Shown here piece after piece: positions 13,867 to 64,000 of a stretch of 64,000 nt of DNA. The position numbers and the translations under genes are program-made. The stretch covers positions 186,051 through 250,050 of the forward strand of contig JBDRIV010000004.1 in the NCBI GenBank assembly GCA_043815505.1, given 5' to 3'. Positions within the stretch are counted from its first letter, which is position 1. Each line of letters starts with the position of its first letter. The notes under the pieces are model-generated. The model was not told where the DNA came from. It saw only the letters and a program-made list of their open reading frames with translations, and searched no databases. This DNA is from a bacterium. Its GTDB lineage: Bacteria > Patescibacteriota > JABMPQ01 > JBDRIV01.

Positions 13867-13952
13867 GATAGCACAAAACCTCACACAAGATTTGCGTGAG
13901 GTTTTCTTTATTAGAAAACCTCGTTCAGTTTTCTGCGCGGGGTTTCTTTTTC

Positions 13953-44566: not shown

Positions 44567-46609
44567 CTACCTGTTATTTTCGTTCCCAATCTCTGCGTTC
44601 AAGTTTACATCATAGAAGTTTTTATATGAACCTCCGACTTGTTGTGTCCAAGTCCATTCCACTGGCCCACCATAATTCCACCACGTCTGATACCTCAATG
44701 GGTATTTACAACCACCTCTTTCCGCATCATAGTTGTCATCACTTGTTTGCCATGTTTCTCCCAAATCAGGTGACACCAGCATTTTAGGACGGCTTCTGTC
44801 ACCACAACTTCCCCCAGATATACCCGTGTCTTTACTGCTCCGAGATGCAACATATATTGTTTGACCGTCTGCTCCCAACCCAGGACTTGGATCACTATAA
44901 CCGCATGTCTCTTCAATTAATTGCCATTCAGTCCAAGTATCTCCTAAATTATCAGATTGTTTAAATACTAAGCCAGTATATGTCGCCGTACTTTGAGCAA
45001 ACACAAAGAGTTGATTAGCGCCTACTGTAAGAATTGCTGGATTGCTGGTGTTTTCATCTGACAAGGAAGTTCTTGTCCATGTTTCACCTTGATTGGATGA
45101 TTTGGCAAACCACAACTCTCTTTCTGGAGATGCCATTTCAGAATAAGTTGCCACCAACACATTTTCAGAAGTAACCTCAAAATGAGGGTAATAGAATATA
45201 CCACTGCCAGAACTTACGGTATATGGATCTGACCAGTTGTTTCCTCCATCTATTGACTTAAGTAAATATATTGGCTCATTAGATGAACCCCAATGAGTTG
45301 CAACATATAACGTTCCTGATTCATCTACGGTAGCATTCACGCTTCTATATACCCCAGTTGATGATTCTGACAAACTGGAATTCGTATATATTGTCTGTGG
45401 TGAAGGAGGTGTTTCATTATATCCAAATTTGACCATTTTCAAATTATCACCATCTCTATAAAAATGATAAACCATTTCATTGGGCCCAGAAATTAAACTG
45501 CTGGAGTAAATACCATCAGTATCTATGCGTGTCCAAGTTTCACCGTTATCAGTGGAACGATAAGTATGGTCATAACTACCAGCACTGGCCAAGGTAACTA
45601 TAGTATCATTAATTCTAACCATTCTACGCCCACCAGAGTTATAATGGCAGTTATTTGAACTTATAGTTGAATCAATAATGATTGGTTCGTGTTCATACCA
45701 ACCGCCTACTATCTCTTCACAATCCTCAGGACAAGTCTCGTGATTTTCCCCTTCCTCACAAACATCATTACCACATTCATTAGTAACTTCTTCACAATCA
45801 AAGTCCTCCTCGTCAACAAAGCTATCACAGTCATTATCTAAGTTATCTGTGCATTCAGTTTCTGTGGTGGTACATCTTTGCTCTAAGACTTGGTAGACTA
45901 CGTTACCCACTTTAGGGCGATAGTAAGAGCCTTTGTTGAGACGGAAGCCAAATTGGACATATTGCCAGTTGTAGGTAACGGTAGAAGGAACAGAAATAAC
46001 ATGAAAACCATTGGTAGAAATGGAAGTTGAATACCAAGGGACAATACTATCATCGGTAGTAGCATCAAACTGTTCGTCTGTTCCTCTAAGAAAGAATTCT
46101 AATTCATTGTTACTACCTAAGAAATTGCCAAATAAGGAAGAATTAAGAGGTGAAAGTAAGGCGGTGAAAGCTACCTTGGAGAGACCAGTAGCAGCACTAT
46201 TTTCATCACCGAAGGAAGCGGTGTCTATTACCTCTGAAGTTACCTTAACTATGCCATTATTATTTTCAATGGCGTTGTTGTAACGAGGTAGTTGTTCGTA
46301 ATCTCCTTCTATATTAAAAGTAGTCATATCATAAGGAGTGTTGTGTTTAATATATTTACCGGGGACATAGACGGTTGGTTCTCCTGATAGTTCGTCGGCT
46401 TGGAAGTCTGATTCTCTGATTTCTTCTTTGGGGATAACGGGGAGAACGGCTGCTCCAGCTACGGCTAGAGCAGAGATTATAAAGACACTCCAGACCATTA
46501 GCTTGAGGCGTTTTTTGGTTTTGGTTTGAGCAGTTGTTTGCTCTGTTTGGGTTTGTTTGACCATCATATTTTTGTTGTTATTTGTTTTATTTTGATTATT
46601 TTGAGACAT
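44567..46609 (-). CDS. secreted protein, paralog B of the 'MSQNNQNKTNNNK' leader family: shared N-terminal module + 'DNDCDSFVDEEDFDCEE' motif + C-terminal BNR/Asp-box beta-propeller
   Basis: Five Asp-box repeats: 'STDNGETW', 'SIDGGNNW', 'SSNQGETW', 'SDNLGDTW', 'SPDLGETW'. Confidence 0.7.
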   Translation of the reverse strand: MSQNNQNKTNNNKNMMVKQTQTEQTTAQTKTKKRLKLMVWSVFIISALAVAGAAVLPVIPKEEIRESDFQADELSGEPTVYVPGKYIKHNTPYDMTTFNIEGDYEQLPRYNNAIENNNGIVKVTSEVIDTASFGDENSAATGLSKVAFTALLSPLNSSLFGNFLGSNNELEFFLRGTDEQFDATTDDSIVPWYSTSISTNGFHVISVPSTVTYNWQYVQFGFRLNKGSYYRPKVGNVVYQVLEQRCTTTETECTDNLDNDCDSFVDEEDFDCEEVTNECGNDVCEEGENHETCPEDCEEIVGGWYEHEPIIIDSTISSNNCHYNSGGRRMVRINDTIVTLASAGSYDHTYRSTDNGETWTRIDTDGIYSSSLISGPNEMVYHFYRDGDNLKMVKFGYNETPPSPQTIYTNSSLSESSTGVYRSVNATVDESGTLYVATHWGSSNEPIYLLKSIDGGNNWSDPYTVSSGSGIFYYPHFEVTSENVLVATYSEMASPERELWFAKSSNQGETWTRTSLSDENTSNPAILTVGANQLFVFAQSTATYTGLVFKQSDNLGDTWTEWQLIEETCGYSDPSPGLGADGQTIYVASRSSKDTGISGGSCGDRSRPKMLVSPDLGETWQTSDDNYDAERGGCKYPLRYQTWWNYGGPVEWTWTQQVGGSYKNFYDVNLNAEIGNENNR

Positions 46610-46765: not shown

Positions 46766-47074
46766 CTAGAGATTTAATTCTTTTTCAGTAACAATACCCT
46801 TTGCAATTAAAACTTGCTTGATCTTTTCAACACGAGCTGCAATGATTTTAGAATCTTCATACCACCTTTCGACAGTTTTAATTAGATTGTCTATTGAGTT
46901 AGTAAGATTATCTATCTTCTTGCTTAAAGGTTTAACCTCTGTTTCAAAGCGCCTATTTACCTCTTCTGTTAAACTGTCAATTTTATTATCAACGCTGTCA
47001 AACTCTTTTTTAAATATCCTTGCTAGTCCTTCAAGGCCTTTGTCCAGTTCTTTTTTAGTTAGTGGTTCTGCCAT
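46766..47074 (-). CDS. small coiled-coil protein (cassette gene, paralog 1)
   Basis: The N-terminus 'MAEPLTKKELDKGLE' and ~150 bp of upstream DNA are identical to those of 47884..48225. Confidence 0.6.
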   Translation of the reverse strand: MAEPLTKKELDKGLEGLARIFKKEFDSVDNKIDSLTEEVNRRFETEVKPLSKKIDNLTNSIDNLIKTVERWYEDSKIIAARVEKIKQVLIAKGIVTEKELNL

Positions 47075-47883: not shown

Positions 47884-48225
47884 TTATGTGAGGTTTAATT
47901 CTTTTTCCGTGGCAATTCCTTTTTTTATTAGAACCTTCTTCATCCTTTCAATTCTTGCGGCAAGAATTTTAGACTCTTCTTGCCACTCTTCAACTTTCTT
48001 AACGTATTTATCTAGCATATTTATAAATCTGTCAAATTTATCATCAATTGCTTTAAACTTTTTGTTCATTTCTAATTTTAGAGAATCTATTTGCATATCT
48101 ACACCATCAAGTCGCTTATCAATACCGTCAAAACGCTTATCAATTCTATTAAATTCTCCTTTAAAAGTTTGTGCTAACTTTTCAAGGCCTTTGTCCAGTT
48201 CTTTTTTAGTTAGTGGTTCTGCCAT
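47884..48225 (-). CDS. small coiled-coil protein (cassette gene, paralog 2)
   Basis: Same N-terminus and promoter (48248..48275) as 46766..47074. Confidence 0.6.
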   Translation of the reverse strand: MAEPLTKKELDKGLEKLAQTFKGEFNRIDKRFDGIDKRLDGVDMQIDSLKLEMNKKFKAIDDKFDRFINMLDKYVKKVEEWQEESKILAARIERMKKVLIKKGIATEKELNLT

Positions 48226-48291: not shown

Positions 48292-48373
48292 TCACTTGGC
48301 AACTTTGCTTATTGGCTCAGTGTCGCGTGTCCAGCTGAACTGTGTGCAGCTGGGTGGACGTTGTTAGAACCAA
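48292..48373. repeat. cassette-array repeat, copy R3 (B-core tail + long C module with a palindromic insert)
   Basis: 'tcacttggcaactttgcttattggctcagtgtcgcgtgtccagctgaactgtgtgcagctgggtggacgttgttagaacc'. Confidence 0.7.
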
Positions 48374-48891: not shown

Positions 48892-49018
48892 TTACCAAAA
48901 AACCGCCCTCCTGTATATTGCTTGCTCTGAGTTTATCGAAGAGGCGATTCTTTGGGTGCCGAACGACCAAACCTATCTTGGATAGGAACGGGTCACTTGG
49001 CAACTTTGCTTATTGGCT
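48892..49018. repeat. cassette-array repeat, copy R4 (terminator module + full B core)
   Basis: 'ccaaaaaaccgccctcctg...ggcgattctttgggtgccgaacgaccaaacctatcttggataggaacgggtcacttggcaactttgcttattggct'. Confidence 0.7.
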
Positions 49019-50710: not shown

Positions 50711-50743
50711 AAACTCAGTGTCGTGGACATTGTTAGAACCAGG
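50711..50743. repeat. cassette-array repeat, copy R5 (short C module)
   Basis: 'aaaactcagtgtcgtggacattgttagaaccagg'. A degenerate terminator module lies at 50549-50610. Confidence 0.6.
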
Positions 50744-51473: not shown

Positions 51474-51678
51474 CCTACTAAAAACCGCCCTCCTGCGCAA
51501 TGCTCCTGAGCGGGCAGGCCTGTTTTTTACCAGCCTGGGGCGGGGGCGATTTTTTGGATGCCATACGACCAAACCTATCTTGGATAGGAACGGGTCACTT
51601 GGCAACTTTGCTTATTGGTTTGAGTGTCGCGTGTCCAGCTGAACTGCGTGCAGCTTGAGTGGATGTTGTTAGAACCAG
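51474..51678. repeat. cassette-array repeat, copy R6 (terminator + B + long C; full-length form)
   Basis: Contains all three modules, with a few substitutions relative to R4 and R10. Confidence 0.7.
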
Positions 51679-51976: not shown

Positions 51977-52077
51977 CTACCAAAAAACCGCCTGTTTGGC
52001 GATTTTTTGTTTACAACTGAAGTGTCGCGTGTCCAGCTGAACTGTGTGCAGCTGGGTGGACGTTGTTAGAACCAGGA
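51977..52077. repeat. cassette-array repeat, copy R7 (terminator + long C)
   Basis: It ends exactly at the stop codon of 52078..52482. Confidence 0.7.
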
Positions 52078-52482
52078 TTACTCAAAGAAATTATCCATTA
52101 TCTGCTTAGCGTCTTCTAAATCACCATATTTCTTGCAATCAACACCTGACCCTAGAATCATACCTGATACTCTTTTCCCATCTTGTAGTTTGTATAAACA
52201 TAGTATTTTTTTATCGTTCTCCAATGCTCTACCAATTTCGTATCCAACCCCCAATGATGGAATTGTAATTTCTGCAACAACCACATCTGAACTTAAAAGC
52301 CATTTCATATCACGATTATGTATAATTTCATCTTTCTCATTCTCTCCTAGACTGTTTAGATTACTATCACCAATATGCTCTGTAAGCACTTCTCCATATT
52401 TTTTTAGATGTTCAATGATTTGTAAATACAAATCTGTATCATCTCTGCCACCTCTTATGGCTCCAGCAAAATATATTTTCAT
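52078..52482 (-). CDS. 2'-deoxynucleoside 5'-phosphate N-hydrolase (DNPH1/Rcl; nucleoside 2-deoxyribosyltransferase-like fold)
   Basis: 'KIYFAGAIRGGRDDTDLY...VLTEH...DVVVAEITIPSLGVGYEIGRA...KKILCLY...GKRVSGMI' parallels DNPH1 'SVYFCGSIRGGREDRALY...VLTEH...DVVVAEVTQPSLGVGYELGRA...KRILCLF...SGRVLSAMI'. Confidence 0.8.
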   Translation of the reverse strand: MKIYFAGAIRGGRDDTDLYLQIIEHLKKYGEVLTEHIGDSNLNSLGENEKDEIIHNRDMKWLLSSDVVVAEITIPSLGVGYEIGRALENDKKILCLYKLQDGKRVSGMILGSGVDCKKYGDLEDAKQIMDNFFE

Positions 52483-52507: not shown

Positions 52508-52576
52508 CCTACCAAAAAACCGCCACTTTGGCGATTTTTTGTTTACAACTCCGCATTGTAGACAACATTAGAACCA
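52508..52576. repeat. cassette-array repeat, copy R8 (terminator + variant C)
   Basis: 'cctaccaaaaaaccgccactttggcgattttttgtttacaactccgcattgtagacaacattagaacc'. Confidence 0.6.
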
Positions 52577-52997
52577 TATTAATGAAGCAGAAAGGGTGTG
52601 TTTATATACCAGACTTAAGGCCAGAAGCCTTAAAGAAGTAATTACCCCACACCTGTTTACACTATATATCAAATAAAAAAAGACCTTTTAACAATGTAGA
52701 GGTCTAACTGCGGTTGTGGTTTATGGATCAACATTGGGGAGAAATTCGACTTTTAGAATGGCAGAGAATTCTACTTCAATTCTTGTGCCGAAGTTTTCGA
52801 TAATCCTGTCGCAAACTCGTTCGATCTCCGTTATAACTGATGCCACCTGCGATTCCATCAGGGGAGAATACATTCCGATGTTCCCATCAAGGGTGTAACT
52901 ACCCCTCTTAATTATCACGTTGCAGGTCCCGACTGTGAGCTTGTTTTAACTGGGTTTCTTAGAATTGTTGGGGATTTTAGCAATACATAATAGAAAA

Positions 52998-53828
52998 TCA
53001 CGACTTTTTTAATGCAGCACTTAGTTGTTTCACAAATCTTTCATTACTCTTAGATGCCTCATCTTGCTCCTTTGAAATGTTTGTTACAGAGTTAATTGTC
53101 TTTATTAGTTCAAATAGTAGACTTCCCGTATTCATAAATAGAGTCGTATGGTTCTTTTCCATATGCATTTCCAGGCTTTCCATTTCGGGAGTCTCACCAG
53201 GTGTAAATACCCCAGTATGAAACAAGAACCCATATAATGACCCGTGCAGTGATTCAGAAGCATCTGTATAATACAGGGTCTGATAAATTAGAAAATGACC
53301 TATATTTGATTCTGAATTCTCCCCAATGATTTTTATTCTCTCCGGTATAGATGTATTGGTCCACCTTCTGATTTCTTTACCTTTTTTTGTAGTAAACTTT
53401 TTTAGAGCAATATCTAATTCTGACCCCTTCTTTGGTTCTTTCTTACCAGAATATTCTAATTTTATTTTTTGATCTCCAGCTTTAAATTCCTGATCAAGCC
53501 TTCGATAGGCTTTTTGTATTGTATATAAATAGTAATTATTGAACTCATCATCGGAACAAGTCAGTAAGTAGCAAATATTTACTACTCCCTCAAAATATCC
53601 TCTCGCAATCATTACAGATGCATTATAAAATCTATCATCTTCACTGAGCCTTTCCAATGCTCCTACGGTAGATAGTAAACTTCCAATAGCTACCAATATT
53701 TTTTTAACCCTTTCATGCTTGGGCGATTTCTTGAAAATTCCGTATACAATACTTGCTTGCTCTGATAAGAATATTCTTGATTTAGCTGTAAGGATTTTTG
53801 AACCAAAAAAGAGAGCACTCTGATTCAT
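52998..53828 (-). CDS. hypothetical protein (cassette gene)
   Basis: ORF of 276 aa with no recognisable motif. Confidence 0.5.
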   Translation of the reverse strand: MNQSALFFGSKILTAKSRIFLSEQASIVYGIFKKSPKHERVKKILVAIGSLLSTVGALERLSEDDRFYNASVMIARGYFEGVVNICYLLTCSDDEFNNYYLYTIQKAYRRLDQEFKAGDQKIKLEYSGKKEPKKGSELDIALKKFTTKKGKEIRRWTNTSIPERIKIIGENSESNIGHFLIYQTLYYTDASESLHGSLYGFLFHTGVFTPGETPEMESLEMHMEKNHTTLFMNTGSLLFELIKTINSVTNISKEQDEASKSNERFVKQLSAALKKS

Positions 53829-53855
53829 ATAAATTCTTTAATAATTTTGTTCCAT

Positions 53856-53927
53856 CCTACCAAAAAACCGCCTGTTTGGCGATTCTTTGTTTACAACTCA
53901 GTGTCGTGGACGTTGTTAGAACTAGAA
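53856..53927. repeat. cassette-array repeat, copy R9 (terminator + short C)
   Basis: It ends exactly at the stop codon of 53928..54968 and lies ~28 nt upstream of the 52998..53828 start codon (53828). Confidence 0.7.
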
Positions 53928-54968
53928 TCACTTCTCTACAATCGTAATTATTCCTTTCTCGGCGTCAACTTCTACTTTATCGCCATCTTTAAGCACTTGT
54001 GTTGCATTCTTTGTGCCAACTATACATGGGACACCTAGTTCTCTGGCGATAATAGCTGCGTGACATAAAAGCCCTCCTTCATTTGTTACTATGGCAGAAG
54101 CTTTTTTCACTGCATGCAATAGTCTGGGAGTTGTCATTATAGAAACCAAAACATCTCCTTGCTTAATTTTTTTGATATCAGCTTTGGTATTCACAATACG
54201 AACAATACCCACCACCTTACCAGAATAAGCTTTAATGCCGGCTATTTCACTAGTTTTAGCTATCTTTTCCGGTAACAATTGACTCTTTTCAATTTCTTTT
54301 GCTTTATTCTTTGTAAATATTTGTATTTTATTATTTTGTAACCAAAGAACATAGTATTTTTCTCTTTCACTCAATTTTTTACTATCAATCAATTTATCGT
54401 TTTGAATAAGACCAAGGAATTCACTGGGTAAGTAGAACATCAGATTCTTCTGAGAGATTCCATACTTTTCTGAGAGACTGATAAAAAATGGTGATGTCTT
54501 ATCCCAAGCAGCACAACTTTCAACTTCGGCTTGTTCGTGCCATTTCCCAACTATATTTAGATCTTTTAGTTTGTTATTTTTTGATTCTAAGTACTTAATC
54601 ACATATTCTGTATAATACACAATACCTCTTGCTAATTTATATTGACTTATAAAGCGTTTAAGTTCTTTATAGTTTTTTTTAGTTATTAGGGAATTAGTAG
54701 AATTTTTGAGCTCACTCAATATATGTTCCCAGGAAGGAATTAGTCTTTCCAAATAGCCATTTTTGTATTCCCTTCTAATGATTTCCTGTTGACCTTCAAT
54801 ATCGGAAGCAAGTTCATATACTGCTGTTAAGCTGTCATTGTTAACAACAAATAAATTTCTAACCTTAAACTCTGATTTATTACCAAACATTTCTCTGTAA
54901 CCATCAATACGAATGAATCTCTCTAATAGAACGGTTTCTCTTGTAACAAGAAGTTTCCAATCGTTCAT
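53928..54968 (-). CDS. protein with a C-terminal PEP-utilising-enzyme mobile (phosphohistidine swivel) domain and an unknown N-terminal domain
   Basis: 'GDVLVSIMTTPRLLHAVKKASAIVTNEGGLLCHAAIIARELGVPCIVG' matches the swivel domain of PEP synthase / PPDK / rifampin phosphotransferase. Confidence 0.7.
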   Translation of the reverse strand: MNDWKLLVTRETVLLERFIRIDGYREMFGNKSEFKVRNLFVVNNDSLTAVYELASDIEGQQEIIRREYKNGYLERLIPSWEHILSELKNSTNSLITKKNYKELKRFISQYKLARGIVYYTEYVIKYLESKNNKLKDLNIVGKWHEQAEVESCAAWDKTSPFFISLSEKYGISQKNLMFYLPSEFLGLIQNDKLIDSKKLSEREKYYVLWLQNNKIQIFTKNKAKEIEKSQLLPEKIAKTSEIAGIKAYSGKVVGIVRIVNTKADIKKIKQGDVLVSIMTTPRLLHAVKKASAIVTNEGGLLCHAAIIARELGVPCIVGTKNATQVLKDGDKVEVDAEKGIITIVEK

Positions 54969-55008
54969 AATAAACTATCAATTAAAAATATTTCTTTCAT
55001 AACTCAAT

Positions 55009-55159
55009 CCTACCAAAAAACCGCCCTTCGGTAAACTCAGGATATATACCTGTTTGGCGATTCTTTGGGTGCCGAACGACCTTTGCAGTTCCGGATAGGA
55101 ACGGGTCACTTGGCAACTTTGCTTATTGGCTCAGTGTCGTGGACGTTGTTAGAACCAGG
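55009..55159. repeat. cassette-array repeat, copy R10 (terminator + B + short C; full-length form)
   Basis: 'cctaccaaaaaaccgcccttcgg...ggcgattctttgggtgccgaacgacc...gggtcacttggcaactttgcttattggctcagtgtcgtggacgttgttagaaccagg'. Confidence 0.7.
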
Positions 55160-55225
55160 ATAATAAAAACTCAGAATCATTTTTATATCATTGATTAGAA
55201 TATGGTATAATACTATGTAGAAAAT

Positions 55226-56041
55226 ATGTCTTTGTGTTTATGTGCAAAGATTCGTAAACTTCGTATCCTTATTCATCGCTGTATGAAAAGAGTAACAAAA
55301 ACTACCTTGATAGCTGTTGGTTCTATAATAGGACTGATAATTCTTGTGTATCTTTATTTCTTTTTTGGGGAAATCAGAAGAATGCATTTTTCAAGTTGTG
55401 ATACTGCTGTAACTGAAACATCATCCTTAGAAAAAATTGAACAAGTTTCAATGGCTTATTATAAATCTCCAAACCCCGATATTGTTGTTCCAATGATTAA
55501 TACTCTTACAGAACAAGACACATTTCAAACAAATTCCTTTGGTCCAATGGCTGCATTTTTTAGTAGAATCTTTGCAGATAACCCAGACAAATTAGAAAGA
55601 TGGGTTATGCAAGACCTTTGTGGTTTAAATAATCAACCTCTTTCAACTTTTGATGTGGTTGTAAATGCTTTATGGATGGCCGATACCCCTGAAGCAAGAG
55701 ACATTCTTAATAAAATTGAAGATACAACAAAAGTCCCTGATGGAAAAAATTATATTGAAAGTCAAATAACTAGAGAGGTATTGGATTTAAAAACTATGAG
55801 TGTTACAACCTCTTTGGATTTAGATATTATTTGGTCCGCATTTTTTGCAACTGGAGATAAAGAATATATTGAACAAATTGTCTCTGTTCTCTATTCAGAT
55901 GATGAAAATTCGTCTAATGATGTCTTATTAGAATCTACTGCTAAGTGGTCCCTTAAATCAAATTACGCGGACAATCCAAAAATAAAGGAAGTATGTGACT
56001 TGAATTCTGAATGCAAGAATCAACTTTTTTCTGAAGAATAA
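55226..56041 (+). CDS. hypothetical signal-anchored protein
   Basis: TM 'TTLIAVGSIIGLIILVYLYFFF'. TATAAT at 55203-55208. The true start may be the internal Met at 55283. Confidence 0.5.
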   Translation: MSLCLCAKIRKLRILIHRCMKRVTKTTLIAVGSIIGLIILVYLYFFFGEIRRMHFSSCDTAVTETSSLEKIEQVSMAYYKSPNPDIVVPMINTLTEQDTFQTNSFGPMAAFFSRIFADNPDKLERWVMQDLCGLNNQPLSTFDVVVNALWMADTPEARDILNKIEDTTKVPDGKNYIESQITREVLDLKTMSVTTSLDLDIIWSAFFATGDKEYIEQIVSVLYSDDENSSNDVLLESTAKWSLKSNYADNPKIKEVCDLNSECKNQLFSEE

Positions 56042-56058
56042 TAAATAAAAAGATTTTC

Positions 56059-56204
56059 TTTACCAAAAAACAGGGTTATTCCCTGTTTTTATTTTCAACT
56101 CACTCACTGGGACGATTTTCGAACTTTCAAATGGATTGATGGGAACATCGAAGAGCTACTTAGTGAAATTAAAACTCAGTGTCGTGGACGTTGCTAGAGC
56201 TGAT
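56059..56204. repeat. cassette-array repeat, copy R11 (terminator-like hairpin + unique spacer + variant C)
   Basis: 'taccaaaaaacagggttattccctgttttt' ... 'aaaactcagtgtcgtggacgttgctagagctg'. It lies between convergent genes. Confidence 0.55.
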
Positions 56205-56238
56205 GCAGCGTTTAATTATTCTATACTTGATATGATTA

Positions 56239-59200
56239 TTATGTGTTCAGTAGCGATACAATGTCTTTGATTATTATTCCCTTGTCATTCCTCTGATTCG
56301 TCCAATCTGAATATTTTATTCTATAAAAGTCCCACCCAGCAACCTCTAATCTTTCCTGTCTATCAAGGTCATTCTGTACATATATTGATAATTCATCGTC
56401 AAGTTCATCTTTGAAATGAGTTGGGCCATCACATTCAAAAGCGATTTTTTGACCATTGCTCTTATTATGTATCACGAAGTCAATTATATAACCACAACTG
56501 TTAACCTGGCTACGAATAGAGTAATCTTTGCCAAGCTCACTTCTCAAATAATCGTATACATTCTCTTCGAATTTATTTGTACATTTTATTTTCTCGTTAG
56601 TGAGATCGCCAATCTCTCCATTTTTATTAACATATTCTAAATATCTTTTTATCCAAATACCGCCAGGAATCTCAGAAATCGGCATACTTATAAAGCAATG
56701 AACCTGCTTTTTAGCTCTAGAGAAAGCAACATTTACTCGTCCCGTATTTATTGCTCCTTGAATATCTCCGCCCTCTCCAGTTAATGGTACGTATTTTCGT
56801 TTATCTTCTTTATTTTTTATTACAAATGAATAAAGAACTATGTCCTTCTCATCACCTTGAATTCCCTCAATTATACTTATTTTATAATTATCCTCTTCTT
56901 CTTTGTATCCTGCTTCTTCAAATACTTCTCTAATGTAAGATGCCTGTGCGTTAAAGAATGTTAAAATCCCAACAGACATCTCTGAGCACCGTTTTTCTTT
57001 TCTAATTTCTCCAAAATATTTAAGTATTGCTTTTGCTTCACTAACATTTATCTTGTCTGAAATCTCCTCACTTAAATCTACCTCTACTTGATTAATGGTC
57101 ATTATTCTGTTTGTATTCTTGTATGTTATATAGTTATCGTTTACAACTACCAGACCTTTGTTTTTTGGTTTATAGAAATACTTATTACTAAAACCTATTA
57201 ATTCTCTAGGTGACCTATAATGATATCTGAGAGATATCATTTGAGTTCCCCTTAATTCCGAAATATCAAGCACAGATTGCACCGCATCACCAGTTGCTTT
57301 AATTTTTAGTTCGTCAGGAATATTATATTTTTTAGCCAACTCATCAAAAAACTTATTTGATTTAAACCGTGTAGTACCATCTTTCATTTGCTCACTATCA
57401 CCAACGAATATAACCTTTTTCCCCCTAAACATTGAGGGTAATGTGTATGCTATATTGCATTCGGAAGCTTCGTCAAGTATTACAATATCAAAAATATTGG
57501 GGTCCAGTGGAATAAGACGACTCGCATCATCTAGTTCCATAACCCAAGTAGGTATAAGATCAACTATTGTTCTAAAATTTTCTGGGTTCTTCCTGAGGTC
57601 ATCAAAGGTTTTAAAGGCTCTTTTTGATTTTCTGAATGCTTTTGCTAATTTACTTATAATTGCTCTATTTTTTTGAATTTTCCACTTTTCAAACAATTTA
57701 TTATTAATAATATTTTGCAAATAGTTTGCAATATGATCATTCTTTCCCTTTCTTGCATTCTTAATCTTTTTGGAAATATCATTTATATTGAATCTTGTCG
57801 ATTTCTCCAATTCTCTTCTTTGCTTTTCTAATTTGTATACTTTAATAACATTATCTTTTGCGCTATCAAAATTCCTTTTTGACTTTTCAATAACTAGACT
57901 ATTAAACAGCTTGAAGCTATTTTCAGATAAGCCACAAGTCTCTAGACTCTTCTTTACTACTGTTTTTAATTCCTTAATTTTGTTTTTATTCTCGCAAAAT
58001 ACTAGATAGTTTTCTAACTCCATTAACTCAATTTCTTGTGATTTTCTTGAAGACTCTTTATTTAGTGCTTCATCAATATAGTCAATAATTTCCTTAGGTA
58101 GTTTTTCTCGTGTTCGTTTCAACCTTACTTTACGCTTAAGATTATTAAATGCTCTTATTATATTTGAATTTCTGTCGTAGCCAGTTTTATGTACATCACT
58201 TAAAATACTCTTAATGGCGACAGAGAAACCTTTTACTGTTAAATCATAGTTGTGAAATAATTCATCAAATTTATTCTTATGGCTAGAAGTATGATATTCT
58301 TCTCTCTCTTCTTGGATTCTATTGACTAATGTCCTATTATTGTTTATTTCTTTCCACATCTTCTCATCGAAAGTATCTGTGAGCTTAGATACATTTCTAA
58401 TTGGAACAATAAAACTCTCTAGATCACTAATTTTCTGAGATTTTGAGAAAATTTCTCTTTGGACCTCTACTACGCTATTAAACAGTTTTTTTAATTTATT
58501 TAGTTCTGTAGATTCTTTGTTAATTAGTTTTTTAGAATCATCGTGTAAATCATTCTTATTATACTCGATAAGTTTTTTTCTAATATCAGTATTAATTCCG
58601 ATGTTTTCCATATGTGCAGCTAAACTAGTTAGCATATTTGCCACACCATCTTTTTCATCAATTTCGTTAACCTGTGCTGAAGACAAATTTGGAATATAAC
58701 CAAAAAGGTATGCAACATTAAGTTCCTTTAGCTTGTCCTTCACTACTTTTACTGCTTGTGATTTTTGGCTCACAAATAACACTCTCTTTCCAGTAGCTGA
58801 ATAATGACATATGAGATTTGCTATTGTTTGAGATTTTCCAGTCCCAGGAGGACCCTGAATAATAGAAGCTTTGTTTTTTGATAAACCAAGAGATCTATAT
58901 TGTGACTCATCATAAGGAAATGGGAAATATACTTCCTTGTCGGTGACACTGTCACCAAAGCCATCGAATTCATCATCCCAATCCTCCGTCCAGCTGGATA
59001 AAGAGGTTTCATTAAGATCCTTTTCATCAACATTTATCATATTCTGGAGATCTTCAGCCAGGAAATAATTTGACTTTGAACTCAGTGCTATTTGCATTTC
59101 TTCTAATGAAAAGGATTTCTCATCATATATTGCTTCAGTTGTTTTTAGAAGTGCTTTTGTTTTATGCCATATATCAATAAATACTTTGTCATCTGTTATA

Positions 59201-59805
59201 GGTATATTAAGATCGCCCTTATCTTCAAGTATTTTTATTTCTTCAATCAATTGATAAAAAAGATTTTCACCTAACACATCCTCTAATAGACTGGTATTAA
59301 CTTGTACTTCCGTATTGCTTGTATATATATGGTACTTACCCCTAGATTTTTTTTCAATATGAATTGGCATAGAAAACAATGGAAACCTATCAACTCGTTT
59401 ACTAAAATCTTCTGGTAAATCATCATCCGTATCGTTCGTATCGTCATTTTCTAAAACTGGTAACTCAATTTCAAAGAAACCAAAGTTTAAGACTATTTGT
59501 TTTATATACTCATTATTACGATACTTGCTATATATATCCTCAACTTTACTTGCAATACTCTTCTCCTTCTCATATTGTTCTGAGTCTTTTTCAGTTACTT
59601 GTTTTGGATCGAGTGAATAAAAAATATCTAATTTTAGTAATTCTTCTAAATGACCGTCTGTATCACCATTTAGAAGTCCTATAAGTGACACTTGCTCTTC
59701 CGAAATAGACACAAAGTTTTTTCTTTGAGATGCAAAATTTCTCTGACGAGCTAACTTAACGTAATCAAGACAGTATTTGATATAGTTTTCAAGATTGTCA
59801 TTCAT
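56239..59805 (-). CDS. Upf1/DNA2-like superfamily-1 helicase (COG1112; AAA_11/AAA_12) fused to a C-terminal DUF559/Vsr-like endonuclease-fold domain, preceded by a ~300-aa N-terminal region
   Basis: Walker A 'IIQGPPGTGKSQT', Walker B 'IVILDEASEC', 'GDSEQM', 'IEGIQGDEKDIVLYSF', 'NVAFSRAKKQVHCF'. C-terminal 'IIDFVIHNKSNGQKIAFECDGPTHF...ERLEVAGWDFYRIKYSDW'. Confidence 0.8.
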   Translation of the reverse strand: MNDNLENYIKYCLDYVKLARQRNFASQRKNFVSISEEQVSLIGLLNGDTDGHLEELLKLDIFYSLDPKQVTEKDSEQYEKEKSIASKVEDIYSKYRNNEYIKQIVLNFGFFEIELPVLENDDTNDTDDDLPEDFSKRVDRFPLFSMPIHIEKKSRGKYHIYTSNTEVQVNTSLLEDVLGENLFYQLIEEIKILEDKGDLNIPITDDKVFIDIWHKTKALLKTTEAIYDEKSFSLEEMQIALSSKSNYFLAEDLQNMINVDEKDLNETSLSSWTEDWDDEFDGFGDSVTDKEVYFPFPYDESQYRSLGLSKNKASIIQGPPGTGKSQTIANLICHYSATGKRVLFVSQKSQAVKVVKDKLKELNVAYLFGYIPNLSSAQVNEIDEKDGVANMLTSLAAHMENIGINTDIRKKLIEYNKNDLHDDSKKLINKESTELNKLKKLFNSVVEVQREIFSKSQKISDLESFIVPIRNVSKLTDTFDEKMWKEINNNRTLVNRIQEEREEYHTSSHKNKFDELFHNYDLTVKGFSVAIKSILSDVHKTGYDRNSNIIRAFNNLKRKVRLKRTREKLPKEIIDYIDEALNKESSRKSQEIELMELENYLVFCENKNKIKELKTVVKKSLETCGLSENSFKLFNSLVIEKSKRNFDSAKDNVIKVYKLEKQRRELEKSTRFNINDISKKIKNARKGKNDHIANYLQNIINNKLFEKWKIQKNRAIISKLAKAFRKSKRAFKTFDDLRKNPENFRTIVDLIPTWVMELDDASRLIPLDPNIFDIVILDEASECNIAYTLPSMFRGKKVIFVGDSEQMKDGTTRFKSNKFFDELAKKYNIPDELKIKATGDAVQSVLDISELRGTQMISLRYHYRSPRELIGFSNKYFYKPKNKGLVVVNDNYITYKNTNRIMTINQVEVDLSEEISDKINVSEAKAILKYFGEIRKEKRCSEMSVGILTFFNAQASYIREVFEEAGYKEEEDNYKISIIEGIQGDEKDIVLYSFVIKNKEDKRKYVPLTGEGGDIQGAINTGRVNVAFSRAKKQVHCFISMPISEIPGGIWIKRYLEYVNKNGEIGDLTNEKIKCTNKFEENVYDYLRSELGKDYSIRSQVNSCGYIIDFVIHNKSNGQKIAFECDGPTHFKDELDDELSIYVQNDLDRQERLEVAGWDFYRIKYSDWTNQRNDKGIIIKDIVSLLNT

Positions 59806-59929
59806 ATTATTCTAGCATTTAATATCCTTTTGATTCATACTCTAAAATTACCACCAATTCATATATTGATCAAATGAAAAACGGGTGGAGCTTTTTAGGC
59901 TTCACCCGTGTTGTTTGTTGTAGGTATTC

Positions 59930-61477
59930 TTATTGCACGCCCATCACGATACAAGCATCTGTGTCTGTATCACCAGAGGGCGGATAAGGAGGTTGGTTAT
60001 ATGGTGAAGGTGTAATGTCTTCACCAAAAAGTGTGAACACATTGTTCCCAAACACACTGCCGGATCTCGGAAGAGTTGCGCTGAAATGATACGAGAAGTT
60101 GTTGAAGCTAGTGAGGGTTTTCGTACCCTGCTTCCAATTATCAAAAACCGTACCATTTGCCAAATCTACTCGTATTTTGGCATATACTGTTCGAGGTGAA
60201 TCGAAGTGCTTGGTGAGCAATACGTAGAAATCAACATTGAAAGGAAGGACCCCAGCTGGAGGTAGGCATTCGAGATTTACGGAGATTCTTTCTGTGCCAG
60301 GATTGAAAGTATCGAATACATAAGCTGACCCTGCAACGTTTATACTGGCACTATCTCGGTGAGCTCCAACAAGTGCATTATATCCATCAAGTGCTACTGC
60401 GGAGCCAAACCAAGCATCTTCAGTGAAGTCCGAAGGGATAAGTTTGTTTTCTTCAGTCCATTCTGTTCCATTCCGCTTGAACACATAGGCATCTTCATAG
60501 TGAGTTCCAATGACGATATAATCACCGTCAATAGATAAACTCCAACCGAAACTATCCCAATCCTGTCTATCAGAAGCCATTAATTCGGCTTCTTCCGTCC
60601 AGACAATGCCGTTTCTGTGGTAGACATATGCTGAACCTTTATAGCCATCGGTGCCTGTTGCTCCGATAACGGCGTAGTCACCATTTATGGAAACGACGTG
60701 TCCAAAGTAGTCATACGTCAGTCCATTAGATGCAGTAAGTTTTGCTTCCTCTGTCCAAGTTGAGCCTTCTCTGTGAAAGATGTAGGCTGAACCTGTGTAG
60801 GAATCATCTGCAACAGCACCGATAACTGCATAATCACCACATATGAACACTGATTGTCCAAAATGGTCATTTGCCACTCCGTCGCTTGCAAGAAGTTTCG
60901 TGTCTTCAGTCCAATCGACTCCGTCAAAACGGAAGATATAGGCTGAGCCTGAATCACCTCCGTTATCGTCGTCAACATAAGCTCCTAATACTGCATACTC
61001 GCCATCAAAATCAACGGAATACCCCAAAGAATCACCAGCTTCTCCGTCAGATGCAAAGAGCTTGGTGTCTTCAGTCCAAGTTATTCCATCTCTTTTAAAA
61101 ACATAGACGGCACCCGCATTAGTAGCAACGTCATCGTCGCCGTGTGTACCTATAAGAATGATGTCTCCATAAATGCTTACAGATGATCCGAAAACATCAT
61201 TTGCCTCACCAAAATTTGGTATAAGTTTTTGTTGTTGAATCCACAATCCATCTTCACGATGGAATACGTAAACTGAACCACCGTCCTGACCAATGTCATC
61301 ATCGTATGTGGCGCCTACTACAGCGTAATCGCCATCAATGTCAACGGAATAACCAAAGTAGTCACCCTCTTGTGCATCAAGAGCAGCCAATTTGGCTGTT
61401 TCGGAGATTTGTCCGTGAGCTACACTACAGCTCACAAAAAAGACTGCTATAAAAACCAAGAGTGCTTTCTTAAACAT
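59930..61477 (-). CDS. secreted FG-GAP / integrin-alpha-like beta-propeller repeat protein
   Basis: Signal peptide. Seven or more repeats of the form 'FG.SV.I.GDYAV(I/V)GA..DD....GSAY(V/I)F' that match the FG-GAP repeat. Confidence 0.7.
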   Translation of the reverse strand: MFKKALLVFIAVFFVSCSVAHGQISETAKLAALDAQEGDYFGYSVDIDGDYAVVGATYDDDIGQDGGSVYVFHREDGLWIQQQKLIPNFGEANDVFGSSVSIYGDIILIGTHGDDDVATNAGAVYVFKRDGITWTEDTKLFASDGEAGDSLGYSVDFDGEYAVLGAYVDDDNGGDSGSAYIFRFDGVDWTEDTKLLASDGVANDHFGQSVFICGDYAVIGAVADDSYTGSAYIFHREGSTWTEEAKLTASNGLTYDYFGHVVSINGDYAVIGATGTDGYKGSAYVYHRNGIVWTEEAELMASDRQDWDSFGWSLSIDGDYIVIGTHYEDAYVFKRNGTEWTEENKLIPSDFTEDAWFGSAVALDGYNALVGAHRDSASINVAGSAYVFDTFNPGTERISVNLECLPPAGVLPFNVDFYVLLTKHFDSPRTVYAKIRVDLANGTVFDNWKQGTKTLTSFNNFSYHFSATLPRSGSVFGNNVFTLFGEDITPSPYNQPPYPPSGDTDTDACIVMGVQ

Positions 61478-61922
61478 TTCAGGTCTCCTTTTCTTGTGTT
61501 TGCTTGAACTGGCGTTTCAATCAAATAAGCCCTTTTCTCCTTTCTGGATTTGGAGTTATGTCATTAACCAACCAATTGTAAAAGAGCGAATTACTTCAAA
61601 TCATAATACAACTAATCTAGTATCAAGTCAAAAAAACCGCCTATTATAACGGTTTTTGTTTACTCTTAAGATATAAATCATAAAAGTCTAACTTTGTGGC
61701 TTATCATAAATCAAAATAGTAGTTAAACTCAATTATTGTATAGTGCTACTAATTTATTAGTGTTTAAACTAGATGATTAGGGTTGATTTCGCGTGTTTAA
61801 ACACACAAAAAAATCAATTAATCTGATTCCCCATCTCACTCGGGGGAATTTTGATGAACTTGTAGTACAGGAGGTGCATGGGACCCATCCATATAAAACT
61901 CAACAAAAATGTAACTGAAAAT

Positions 61923-62741
61923 CTACCAATTAATACATTTATTATAGTAATCATCTTGTGCTTTGTCTGCATCTTTTCGAATTACTACAGCAGCTTTCTC
62001 TGGTATTCTAATTCTATCACGATCTCTCCAAGAAATTTTATCATTTACACAAAGTTGTATAAAACGCTCTTGACTACATTCATTTTCTAGTTCTTCTGTT
62101 GATTTATATAATTCAGGATAGTTTATGGGCATTTGCTCTTTAAAAGCAGCTAGTCTGTCTTCATATATACGATCTCCTGTTGCTTTTGCCTCATACTCAC
62201 AATTTGCAAATTTTAATGTCTGGTCCTCTTTTTCATTCGATTGTTCTGATACCTCATTATTAGTATCTGGTTTTACTTCTTTTTGAATAACGGCAGGGGC
62301 AGAATATGTTTGTGCTGAAACTTCTTTTTCTTCTTCAAATACACCTTTTAGAGTAAGAGTTTTTTCAACTACACTTTCATTGTATTCTGCAACAATTCTT
62401 ATATTGTTATCTCCATTTTCAAGTTCCAAAACCATTCCAAAATCACCACTTTCTGACACTCCTGACTGACTACCATTTATCTTCACAGTTGCGCTAGGTA
62501 TTGAAACGTTTCCTTTAATTTCAAATTCCTTTGTATGAATTTCGTCATAATCATTGGCATTTGATATCTCAAGTTTTAGCTCTTCAGTTTCATTATTCTC
62601 TCCATCAGCTTTTTCATTTTGTAAGCTATTTATGACAGAACCTTCTGTACTATTATCACTAAATTCGTTCCAACCATATACTGAAACTAAGGCAACCAAT
62701 ACTACTACGCCTACAATTATAGATATTGCTTTTTTGTTCAT
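61923..62741 (-). CDS. hypothetical signal-anchored protein
   Basis: N-terminal TM 'AISIIVGVVVLVALVSVYGW'. Confidence 0.5.
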   Translation of the reverse strand: MNKKAISIIVGVVVLVALVSVYGWNEFSDNSTEGSVINSLQNEKADGENNETEELKLEISNANDYDEIHTKEFEIKGNVSIPSATVKINGSQSGVSESGDFGMVLELENGDNNIRIVAEYNESVVEKTLTLKGVFEEEKEVSAQTYSAPAVIQKEVKPDTNNEVSEQSNEKEDQTLKFANCEYEAKATGDRIYEDRLAAFKEQMPINYPELYKSTEELENECSQERFIQLCVNDKISWRDRDRIRIPEKAAVVIRKDADKAQDDYYNKCINW

Positions 62742-62808
62742 TTTTTCGATTTATTAATTAACGTTTTACTATACTTTAGAATGCATTATTTTGCAACTAG
62801 TCACCAAT

Positions 62809-63324
62809 TTAGTAATTACGTTGTTCCCAATAATCAAAATCAATAGTATATGAATCGTCATTATCACAGTTTGGGTCCATATTAAGCAATCCTCTATAAT
62901 TATCATCATTCTCATTTACATATGCATATATAAATATTTTAGCACTTAAACTTTTTTTCTTGTCATAAACATCTTTGAGAACGGCCTCTATCTGTTTTTG
63001 AGTAGCACTTTCACTTACTATTAATCTGTATTCTATTCTTTTACATCCAACATATGATAAATCTGATTCACTATAAATATTATATTCTATTAGATTGTCA
63101 TCAATTGTATTATTATCGTCTTCTATTCCATTGATATTCTCATCATTCAGTTCAGTTTCAGTAATTGCTTTATTTTTAGTAGAAATATTTTCCGTATTTT
63201 GTTCACTATTTATATTTTCATTAGCTTCTTTACTTTTTTCATAATTATTTGATGCTACAATCCAATATATCATCCCTGAAATAATAATTATAAATATTAC
63301 TATTGTTATTATTACTTTTTTCAT
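62809..63324 (-). CDS. hypothetical signal-anchored protein
   Basis: N-terminal TM 'VIITIVIFIIIISGMIYWIV'. Confidence 0.5.
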   Translation of the reverse strand: MKKVIITIVIFIIIISGMIYWIVASNNYEKSKEANENINSEQNTENISTKNKAITETELNDENINGIEDDNNTIDDNLIEYNIYSESDLSYVGCKRIEYRLIVSESATQKQIEAVLKDVYDKKKSLSAKIFIYAYVNENDDNYRGLLNMDPNCDNDDSYTIDFDYWEQRNY

Positions 63325-63333
63325 AGTATTGAA

Positions 63334-64000
63334 TTAATTACATAAAGTTTCACAGGGTATACCGTCTTTATCATTATCTCTTATGCTACATCCACAAGTA
63401 TTGAGCTGATAATAGGCCTCATCACAAGATGTAATCTGAGTACAGGTTCTTGAACAGTCGCACGTGTATGTTGTTGTTGCTGGAGGAACAACTGGAATTG
63501 CCTTATCTTCTTGTGTTGTTTCATCAACCTTATCTTGAACAGGTGGAGTTGAAATTGGTTCAGGTTCGATAAGTTCTGTAGACCCATTACATGTATCTTC
63601 CGCCCACAAACCAATCTTAGACTCCCTGGCCTGCTTTTCGTATTCTTTGTATTTATCAGTCATCGATACAGGATATTTCAAATAAGCATAAGCATAACCT
63701 TGCTTAATCATTTCAGCTCCAATATCAGTATTATTAAGATAAACATATCTGAGCAATCTTCCATATCTGTCTTTGTCGCCTTGTGACAAATCAACTAACA
63801 AGATTACTTTTTTTCCATTCACATATTCAGTCATTTTCTTTGATGCTTCTTCTCCAAAACATTGAACTGGTTTTCTAGGGTCTTTAGTTTCTGGTGTGTC
63901 AATTCCAAGTATTCTGACTTTGTTGCCGTCCGAAAGTTTAATTGTGTCTCCATCAATTACTTCTGAAACAATTGCTTCAGAGCCCACAGGATTGATTATG
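63334..64000 (-). CDS. thermonuclease (staphylococcal-nuclease fold) with a C-terminal Cys-rich Excalibur-like Ca-binding domain; 5' end outside the window
   Basis: 'VIDGDTIKL...VRILGIDTPE...DRYGRLLRYVY...KIGLW' is the SNase pattern. The C-terminal 'DNDKDGIPCETLC' is an Excalibur motif. The frame stays open upstream of the track start up to the window edge. Confidence 0.7.
   Translation of the reverse strand, partial: IINPVGSEAIVSEVIDGDTIKLSDGNKVRILGIDTPETKDPRKPVQCFGEEASKKMTEYVNGKKVILLVDLSQGDKDRYGRLLRYVYLNNTDIGAEMIKQGYAYAYLKYPVSMTDKYKEYEKQARESKIGLWAEDTCNGSTELIEPEPISTPPVQDKVDETTQEDKAIPVVPPATTTYTCDCSRTCTQITSCDEAYYQLNTCGCSIRDNDKDGIPCETLCN

Follow-up and report, generated by a model that had tools for sequence, protein, structure and literature searches.

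A repeat-bounded array in a Patescibacteria contig carries a probable split phosphotransferase subunit as an independent cassette, next to an Hhe-like helicase-nuclease

We analysed a 64,000-nt stretch of contig JBDRIV010000004.1 (GenBank assembly GCA_043815505.1, forward-strand positions 186,051 to 250,050; hereafter the window) from a bacterium of the Patescibacteriota. The study centres on an array of short direct repeats and on three genes at its right end, which encode a DUF5677 protein, a protein with the phosphohistidine swivel domain of phosphoenolpyruvate (PEP)-utilising enzymes (hereafter the swivel protein) and a helicase-nuclease. On balance we favour the following reading: the right end of the array bears two independent cassettes, DUF5677 and swivel, the Hhe-like helicase gene lies just outside it, the swivel protein is one half of a split kinase, and the repeats are attachment (att)-type sites. 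A first-pass annotation of the same DNA had grouped the three genes as defence-island cargo inside the array. That framing is right for the helicase only, and the helicase adjoins the array rather than sitting in it.

Organisation of the array

The array covers ~9 kb (about 47.27–56.20 kb) and contains ~10 sites, all in one orientation and each roughly 30–45 nt long. Their conserved core reads TGGCTC-N9-GGAC-GTTGTTAGAAC, and CAGGATTA often comes next. The core motif GTGGACGTTGTTAGAAC occurs in 7 copies between 48354 and 56200, all on the plus strand, where 0.09 would be expected; more divergent copies are found at about 47272, 52556 and 56108. The left part of the array contains the copies at ~47272, 48345–48370, 50714–50739, 51650–51675 and 52047–52072 (+). 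A degenerate site, GTAGACAACATTAGAAC (52556–52572, +; repeat families D6 and D12), forms the left boundary of the DUF5677 unit, CTCAGTGTCGTGGACGTTGTTAGAAC (53897–53922, +) is the boundary between the swivel stop codon and that unit, and TGGCTCAGTGTCGTGGACGTTGTTAGAAC (55127–55155, +) closes the swivel unit on the right. They are followed by a variant site (..CTCACTGGGACGATTTTCGAAC; 56098–56124, +), a variant shared with two copies in the metagenome locus L157 (loci are designated by L numbers), and by a final degenerate site, CTCAGTGTCGTGGACGTTGCTAGAGC (56175–56200, +), at the right end of the array. No copy is present in 56201–64000.

The sites delimit units of 0.4–2.4 kb, most of which hold a single gene. 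Their contents comprise two paralogous coiled-coil genes, a FAD-oxidoreductase-like gene, a nucleoside 2-deoxyribosyltransferase gene, the DUF5677 gene, the swivel gene, a gene for a 271-aa protein and several small unknowns. The three open reading frames (ORFs) described by the first-pass annotation are present at the positions that it gave, all on the minus strand: DUF5677 at 52998–53828 (276 aa), swivel at 53928–54968 (346 aa) and helicase at 56239–59805 (1188 aa). NCBI proteins at 100% identity, encoded on a 255-kb MAG contig, exist for all three, and the closest homologues of the helicase and of the swivel protein come nearly all from Patescibacteria, or candidate phyla radiation (CPR), lineages. 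The DUF5677 unit extends over about 52573–53922 and the swivel unit over about 53923–55155. The final site lies to the left of the helicase stop codon, which leaves the helicase outside the array in which it had been placed.

The DUF5677 and swivel genes belong to separate units

The DUF5677 and swivel genes had been proposed to form a two-gene defence or toxin module, in which the swivel protein would phosphorylate a protein or nucleotide target. The two genes are indeed adjacent, on the same strand and 99 nt apart. Homologues of the DUF5677 protein are located in variable islands that also contain HEPN, DUF4145 and Schlafen-like genes, and a DUF5677 ORF was picked in a defence screen as enriched near serine recombinases (PMC12632615, preprint). 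However, the repeat copy that had been noted in the 99-nt spacer (53853–53922, family D12) is a real one: a copy of the site and a terminator-like hairpin stand between the genes. This hairpin, an A-tract/GC-stem/T-tract structure (CCAAAAAACCGCC...GGCGATTCTTTG; 53860–53891, DNA fold), is located upstream of the DUF5677 start codon. Because site copies cut the array between them, the two genes are separate units. Moreover, their adjacency is conserved from neither side, as it was found in none of 79 swivel loci examined by tblastn, none of five annotated contexts of close swivel homologues and none of three DUF5677 contexts. Neither gene has a PADLOC match, and the one DUF5677 ORF tested in that screen, which came from a distant Bacillota host, did not figure among the ORFs that protect against phage (PMC12632615). 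The module is thus largely refuted by non-conservation, and we give it only the slightest probability. The DUF5677 and swivel genes are two independent cassettes, not an operon.

The 276-aa protein, the sole large gene product of its unit, had been described as unknown; Pfam assigns it to DUF5677 (1.9e-11), with 44.8 bits against a gathering cut-off of 27.1. It has no match in NCBIfam or PHROGs. Its close homologues form four clusters besides its own, at 47–49% identity, and are found in runs of small accessory genes, with a second DUF5677 gene, DUF4145 and a faint HEPN in one context (L003/L004) and with DUF4062 and a Schlafen/AlbA_2 ATPase in another (L006). DUF5677 is regarded here as an accessory protein tied to variable or defence-type islands. 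At L003 (7103–8913), copies of a 58-nt repeat (TTTTATGTAAACTTTGAATTTTACACCC...) flank a tandem pair of DUF5677 genes on both sides, which suggests another cassette-like arrangement in a different phylum, the genome being apparently of the Bacteroidota (a Por_Secre_tail gene is nearby). The same repeat also follows another gene 5 kb away.

The swivel protein resembles the C-terminal part of rifampin phosphotransferase

The swivel protein is composed of a helical N-terminal domain (aa 1–235) and a swivel domain (aa 268–339, nt 53952–54167). In line with the first-pass annotation, the latter is its sole Pfam domain (PEP-utilizers mobile domain, 8.7e-26), and nothing is matched on aa 1–250. The putative phospho-acceptor is His303 (codon 54060–54062), which is invariant, in the context GG(I/L)xxHAAI, in an alignment of 25 full-length relatives. 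In the same alignment, the N-terminal domain has conserved Arg, Tyr, Glu and Asp residues. The AlphaFold (AF2) model has a predicted local distance difference test score (pLDDT) of 92.4 and a predicted template modelling score (pTM) of 0.87; it shows a mainly helical N-terminal domain with two small sheets, followed by the swivel fold.

When this model was compared with the PDB using Foldseek, the rifampin phosphotransferase (RPH) of Listeria, RPH-Lm, came first (5fbu and 5hv1, E about 3e-12), followed by pyruvate kinase, PPDK and Enzyme I. The RPH-Lm alignment covers 266–282 columns, well past the ~100-residue swivel domain. At the sequence level, alignments to RPH begin at about aa 168–184 of the swivel protein (phmmer, NCBIfam), also upstream of the swivel domain. 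The NCBIfam profile RIF_Ptrans_rph aligns aa 172–343 with its positions 696–863/864 at 71.6 bits, below the cut-off of 999, and the PEP synthase profile reaches 125 bits against a cut-off of 598.

The Foldseek matches include the N-terminal domains of Enzyme I (swivel plus helical HPr-binding subdomain, E about 5e-6), and phmmer also matches Enzyme I swivel regions, as would be expected if the protein were an Enzyme-I-like phosphocarrier or regulator with a protein target. However, the RPH matches are stronger and longer, the protein has no PEP-utilizers_C domain (Pfam), and no component of the PEP-dependent phosphotransferase system was seen among the scanned ORFs of the window, most of 1–26 kb being unscanned. 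In addition, the neighbour that recurs beside relatives (see below) is PPDK_N, which serves as the ATP-grasp donor domain in the RPH/PpsA class. An Enzyme-I-like role is therefore highly improbable.

The swivel protein shares with RPH and the PpsA/PPDK class a C-terminal swivel domain, the acceptor His in its GG(I/L)xxHAAI motif and a helical domain in front of it. It differs from them by the absence of PEP-utilizers_C and of the ATP-grasp domain (no PPDK_N in Pfam); in relatives, the latter is a separate gene product of ~315 aa. There is neither a PPDK_N gene nor a second swivel gene in the window. The N-terminal domain (~235 aa) is also smaller than the rifampin-binding domain of RPH (~430 aa) and, unlike RPH, has no sequence-detectable relatives beyond 25 representative clusters among 1.84 billion. 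Near-full-length matches to this domain lie at the N-terminus of proteins of 240–424 aa, and none of these matches is long enough to hold an ATP-grasp domain as well.

Swivel genes form tandem arrays in CPR and DPANN genomes

A swivel domain without its catalytic partners had been considered unusual. On the contrary, 584 relatives sharing aa 160–346 were confirmed in species-representative genomes, mostly of CPR and DPANN. They fall into a main size class of 460–530 aa and a second one of 330–370 aa, and they usually occur in tandem: among the ORFs located at most three genes from a match, 267 of 580 have a swivel domain, and at least three swivel paralogues are present in 48 of 78 loci. The tandem arrays of CPR and DPANN (L012–L090 and L212; for instance L016, L053, L032 and L212) reach up to 9 paralogous genes with an N-terminal domain plus swivel layout, interspersed with stand-alone PPDK_N genes and genes for His phosphatases and HAD hydrolases. 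A literature search returned nothing on swivel-domain families in Patescibacteria or on their tandem paralogue arrays.

Among neighbours other than swivel genes, the largest cluster consists of a stand-alone, complete PPDK_N ATP-grasp protein of ~315 aa (Pfam 2.5e-101). In L012, a PPDK_N-like ORF lies directly upstream of the closest homologue in the genome collection. His_Phos_1, HAD, a methyltransferase and TrmB were also found repeatedly as neighbours; regular-expression counts of NUDIX, HAD and His-phosphatase motifs were too insensitive and were not used. Among the close homologues of the 346-aa class, one is flanked by HAD, NUDIX, methyltransferase-NUDIX and MBL genes (L001) and one follows a NUDIX, cupin, NUDIX series and precedes Ham1, between aminoacyl-tRNA synthetase genes (L213). 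Another is found with a radical-SAM gene (L211), and one is within a paralogue array with a His phosphatase (L212). Such neighbourhoods speak for metabolism of phosphoester or nucleotide type more than for immunity. The suggestion that the swivel gene belongs to a defence or toxin system accordingly fared poorly: PADLOC gives no match, and the close homologues stand among NUDIX, HAD, Ham1, His-phosphatase and core genes, a setting of the kind that the first-pass annotation had itself named as speaking against defence.

The PPDK_N neighbours, the structural match to RPH and the invariant His therefore suggest split RPH/PpsA chemistry: rather than a defence protein, the swivel protein most likely represents one half of a split His-relay kinase. 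We infer the ATP-grasp partner from the neighbourhoods of relatives, the His and the fold being apparent in the protein itself; the His relay is presumed from the chemistry of the family. A separately encoded PPDK_N protein, located outside the window, would phosphorylate His303 from ATP, and the swivel domain would pass this phosphate on to a small molecule bound by the helical N-terminal domain. Three observations weigh against a split kinase: the structural match to RPH has a low TM-score (0.38), PPDK_N-like ORFs are present within 6 kb in only 22 of 79 swivel loci, and four of the five close-homologue contexts of the 346-aa class (L001, L211, L212 and L213) have no PPDK_N gene.

The sites resemble tRNA 3′ ends

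Scanning metagenome contigs with a 15-mer of the site motif returned 120 loci. The extended site context is present in 49 of them, several of which are arrays (L157, L158, L203, L091 and L136/L167). In three contigs, the 18 nt that make up the left part of the site (TGGCGCGCCTGGCAGGAC) correspond to the 3′ end of tRNA-Arg, read as its reverse complement, at 18/18 positions in L206, 16/18 in L091 and 14/18 in L185. The tRNA-Arg gene (anticodon CCT in L206 and L091) is located at the right, far end of the array in each of the three contigs, and in L206 and L091 ~35 nt of its downstream flank are repeated too. In L206, a full-length tyrosine recombinase gene ends 59 nt to the left of the first site copy. 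A tyrosine recombinase is likewise found at full length beside the site in L174, and as fragments in four contigs, one of them L091. The pattern in L206, L091 and L185 is the one that serial site-specific integration leaves at a tRNA gene.

The sites of the window keep the layout of a tRNA 3′ end: TGG, one base, 7 nt, 5 nt, AC. The element-side junction GTTGTTAGAAC is kept across hosts whose tRNA-like parts differ. The sites of the window are thus most likely att-type sites, which would have been left by serial tyrosine-recombinase integration at a tRNA 3′ end; as the window has no tRNA gene, this assignment proceeds by homology of the sites. Under this model, the 3′ end of the host tRNA would read GTCCACGACACTGAGCCA.

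Several results weigh against an att origin. The window has no tRNA gene. A recombinase was not found among the scanned ORFs, ~27 ORFs of at least 90 aa in 1–26 kb being unscanned, nor by tblastn of the window with an approximate IntI1 query. In three CPR-like loci (L127, L143 and L187), a nearby tRNA-Ser shares only 10–12 of 20 positions with the site. Finally, units of 0.4–2.4 kb are far below the usual size of integrative elements.

The sites were first read as attC, owing to the GTTAGAA core and to hairpins in some copies; this reading was dropped after the test described below and the finding of identity to the tRNA-Arg 3′ end. The array would then have been an ordinary sedentary integron, or a cluster of attC sites lacking integrase (CALIN), with its genes as attC-bounded cassettes. 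The sites are co-oriented and bound gene-sized units whose cargo consists mostly of small unknowns, GTTAGAA is similar to the GTTRRRY core, some copies form an imperfect hairpin, and metagenome contigs have a tyrosine recombinase gene next to this site. On the other hand, none of the true sites is preceded by an inverted complement (R″) better than those in shuffled sequence: depending on the site, 31 to 188 of 200 shuffles gave the R′-like 11-mer an upstream complement at least as good as its best one in the window. The short copies are entirely stemless, and the site copies the tRNA-Arg 3′ end in L206, L091 and L185. The L206 recombinase scores higher as Xer-type, with 73 bits against the cut-off of 265 for the integron integrase (NCBIfam), and no IntI was found among the scanned ORFs of the window, most of 1–26 kb being unscanned. 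An integron is thus improbable. The array resembles a CALIN in its co-oriented sites, gene-sized units, diverse and mostly unknown cargo and promoter-like sites in some cassettes. It differs from a CALIN in that its sites have neither R″/R′ nor L″/L′ inverted repeats, in that no IntI was found in the scanned ORFs and in that related contigs show a tRNA end as the origin of the site.

Tandem accretion of integrative or cis-mobilisable elements at tRNA genes, the process to which we compare the att-type sites, is matched in related contigs by direct repeats that copy the tRNA 3′ end and flank (L206 and L091; the end only in L185), with a recombinase at one end of the array and an intact tRNA gene at the other (L206, L091 and L185). 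The array described here differs from it in several respects: its units are single-gene, 0.4–2.4 kb long and without a recombinase of their own, matching integron cassettes in size and content, no tRNA gene lies in the window and no recombinase was detected there, and the GTTGTTAGAAC junction is kept across hosts with different tRNA-like parts.

The related arrays contain genes for a glycoside hydrolase, a cyclodipeptide synthase, GNAT, ankyrin repeats and a C39-like peptidase, and for SIR2_2 and DUF4365 in L206. Because of this mixed cargo, the arrays are considered carriers of general accessory genes, not specifically of defence genes. In the viral collection, the 15-mer had ten matches, none of them with the site context. 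No Rfam family matched in the window or in the array. The motif was also examined as a tRNA T-arm or a tmRNA end and rejected, since the T-stem pairs only after removal of 5 nt, leaving a resemblance in layout only. The site presumably resembles tRNA-Asn (U1-A72, GGAGCCA end), which we take as a lead rather than a test.

The helicase-nuclease is related to Hhe-type defence proteins

The product of 56239–59805 had been described as a helicase joined to a DUF559 nuclease, and Pfam bears this out, with AAA_11, AAA_12, MTES_1575 (1.3e-15) and DUF559 (4.7e-05) domains. In an alignment of 25 homologues (63% mean column identity), the Walker A motif GPPGTGKS (aa 318–325, nt 58831–58854), the DEAS motif (aa 778–781) and the later helicase motifs are invariant or nearly so. 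A helical insertion is present at about aa 420–770. In the nuclease domain (aa 1079–1173, nt 56287–56571), D1109 and E1124-C-D1126-G-P-x-H1130 are invariant. The AF2 model of the full protein is poor (pLDDT 65, pTM 0.33), and its Foldseek matches (Aquarius, Upf1 and Dna2) indicate the superfamily 1 (SF1) class only.

The defence-like character attributed to this architecture is borne out by several comparisons. PADLOC returns PDC-S37 (1.8e-74, profile positions 644–1330 of 1550), Hhe (1.8e-36) and Mokosh helicases; a literature search returned nothing on PDC-S37. NCBIfam gives ProA (NF058533) at 249.8 bits against a cut-off of 1500 and Hhe at 154.6 bits against 2000, the latter over aa 416–1174 only. 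A tblastn search of plasmids yielded 527 with relatives of the helicase at 25–30% identity, annotated as DUF4011 or DUF3320 in the rows listed. BLASTP against one such DUF4011 (Hhe-type) plasmid protein of 1942 aa is collinear, aa 131–367 aligning with 518–748 (1e-19) and aa 746–1168 with 1300–1712 (3e-29). The DUF4011 region is partial (about aa 131–300), and the Pfam DUF4011 score of 18.1 bits, over aa 135–175 only, compares with a cut-off of 22.2. As in Hhe, ProA and PDC-S37, the order would be a DUF4011-region tail, a Upf1-like SF1 helicase with a large insertion and an MTES_1575/DUF559 nuclease of the PD-(D/E)xK type. As with Hhe, a single-gene anti-phage system, the gene stands alone and occurs in variable contexts, and its ATPase and nuclease motifs are intact. 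It differs from Hhe in length (1188 aa versus about 1800–1940 aa, at 26–27% identity), in the lack of the first ~500 aa and of the C-terminal extension, in a DUF4011 match below cut-off and in forming a well-conserved CPR-wide family of its own. By domain order and alignment, the protein thus appears to be a compact, distant member of the Hhe/DUF4011 superfamily.

The distribution of this family has been weighed in the light of another possibility, that the helicase serves CPR in housekeeping DNA repair or replication and adjoins the array by coincidence. More than 120 clusters align over the full length at ~50% identity in many CPR classes, with relatives in Levy-, Gottesman-, Buchanan-, Magasanik-, Moran- and Paceibacteria. 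No relative was found on the IMG/VR viral contigs, and the gene lies outside the last repeat. One homologue has pps, eno, recA and recX around it, a housekeeping neighbourhood (L007). However, the three contexts examined show no synteny; a syntenic core position in all relatives was what the first-pass annotation had named as speaking against its reading. Two of the three adjoin mobile or defence genes, namely those for a serine recombinase and a PDDEXK nuclease in L009, and for TerL, ParB and a methylase with an OLD-family nuclease in L011. Furthermore, its nearest named relatives are the defence proteins Hhe/DUF4011, ProA and PDC-S37. A housekeeping role is consequently unlikely, if by a less wide measure than the alternatives considered for the array and its cassettes. 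Given the family resemblance and the non-synteny, a role in defence is most likely, and we infer that the protein would act as a single-protein DNA-tracking nuclease aimed at foreign DNA. Two points weigh against this role, the homologue near recA and the fact that the helicase misses all curated family cut-offs by a wide margin.

Upstream of the helicase gene (59806–59929), there is only a terminator-like hairpin (59881–59909), which is read as the terminator of an FG-GAP gene.

Accessory elements and other features of the window

The 13-mer CCAAAAAACCGCC, the left half of the A-tract/GC-stem/T-tract hairpin, occurs in 24 copies in the window, where 1.3 would be expected. Copies are found for instance at 13951, 16736, 31960, 51980 and 53860; the accompanying hairpin is CCAAAAAACCGCC...GGCGATTTTTTG. 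Because the copies are spread over the window, this hairpin is not specific to the array. Within the array, CCAAAAAACCGCC is followed on the minus strand by a conserved GGTAGGAT, just upstream of several start codons, and the two may constitute a combined terminator/promoter element. Over the window, a scan by consensus match alone gave 65 promoter-like sites versus 49.6 in shuffles (standard deviation 7.4), that is ~2 standard deviations above; terminator-like sites were not enriched over shuffles in the same type of scan.

A 29-nt hairpin, CGTGTCCAGCTGAACTGTGTGCAGCTGGG, is inserted at one and the same point, after AGTGTCG, in three site copies (48328–48356, 51632–51660 and 52030–52058) and is absent from the others. 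A 74-nt module with a stem-loop fold (family D9) is present three times in the array, at 48943–49016, 51545–51618 and 55056–55129 (+). Two of the three copies, including the last one, lie directly to the left of a site; the copy at 48943 does not. In the copy at 55056, the sequence of the inner hairpin differs and the pairing is kept.

The nucleoside 2-deoxyribosyltransferase-family gene (52078–52482, −) occupies a 500-bp unit of its own, two units to the left of the swivel gene, and is a nucleoside-salvage function borne as a cassette. The paralogous coiled-coil genes (46766–47074 and 47884–48225, −; 102 and 113 aa) have near-identical upstream regions with a promoter-like TTGACA-16-TATACT site, and the 113-aa product has weak PHROG matches. 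A fourth gene in the range covered by the first-pass annotation, which omits it, encodes a 271-aa protein (55226–56041, +) in its own unit. Its conceptual translation has a hydrophobic N-terminal stretch, and no family matched it in Pfam, PADLOC, NCBIfam or PHROGs.

Elsewhere in the window, the large minus-strand ORFs at 10093–11751, 32028–33773, 34467–43508 and 44567–46609 share repeated blocks (families D1, D3 and D20). The 680-aa ORF among them has BNR repeats, and a 3013-aa ORF has internal repeats of 250–270 nt. The gene at 63334–63987 (−) encodes a staphylococcal-nuclease plus Excalibur protein, matching PADLOC C3a212 (SNc+LTD; 2.3e-35).

Implications

The most unusual aspect of this region is that sites of tRNA-end type bound cassettes of integron size, a possible mechanism of gene capture. 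One may go further and imagine, in CPR, an integron-like gene-capture system with att sites from tRNA 3′ ends and a GTTGTTAGAAC junction, an Xer-like recombinase, plug-in swivel cassettes and diversifying phosphotransferase arrays; we regard this wider scheme as speculative and rather doubtful. If it were true, the swivel cassette would be a substrate-specificity module (N-terminal domain plus swivel) serving a host-encoded stand-alone ATP-grasp protein. The tandem swivel paralogues of CPR and DPANN would then be a diversifying, horizontally exchangeable set of small-molecule phosphotransferases, which might for example inactivate antibiotics or toxins, as RPH does, or salvage nucleosides.

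The helicase would extend the Hhe-type superfamily to a compact form that is common across CPR, whose immune repertoires are poorly known. As for the swivel gene, it points to a large family of split His-relay phosphotransferases, expanded in tandem in CPR and DPANN, of which one member has been captured here as a mobile cassette. The substrates of this family could partly explain how these reduced symbionts handle metabolites or antibiotics.

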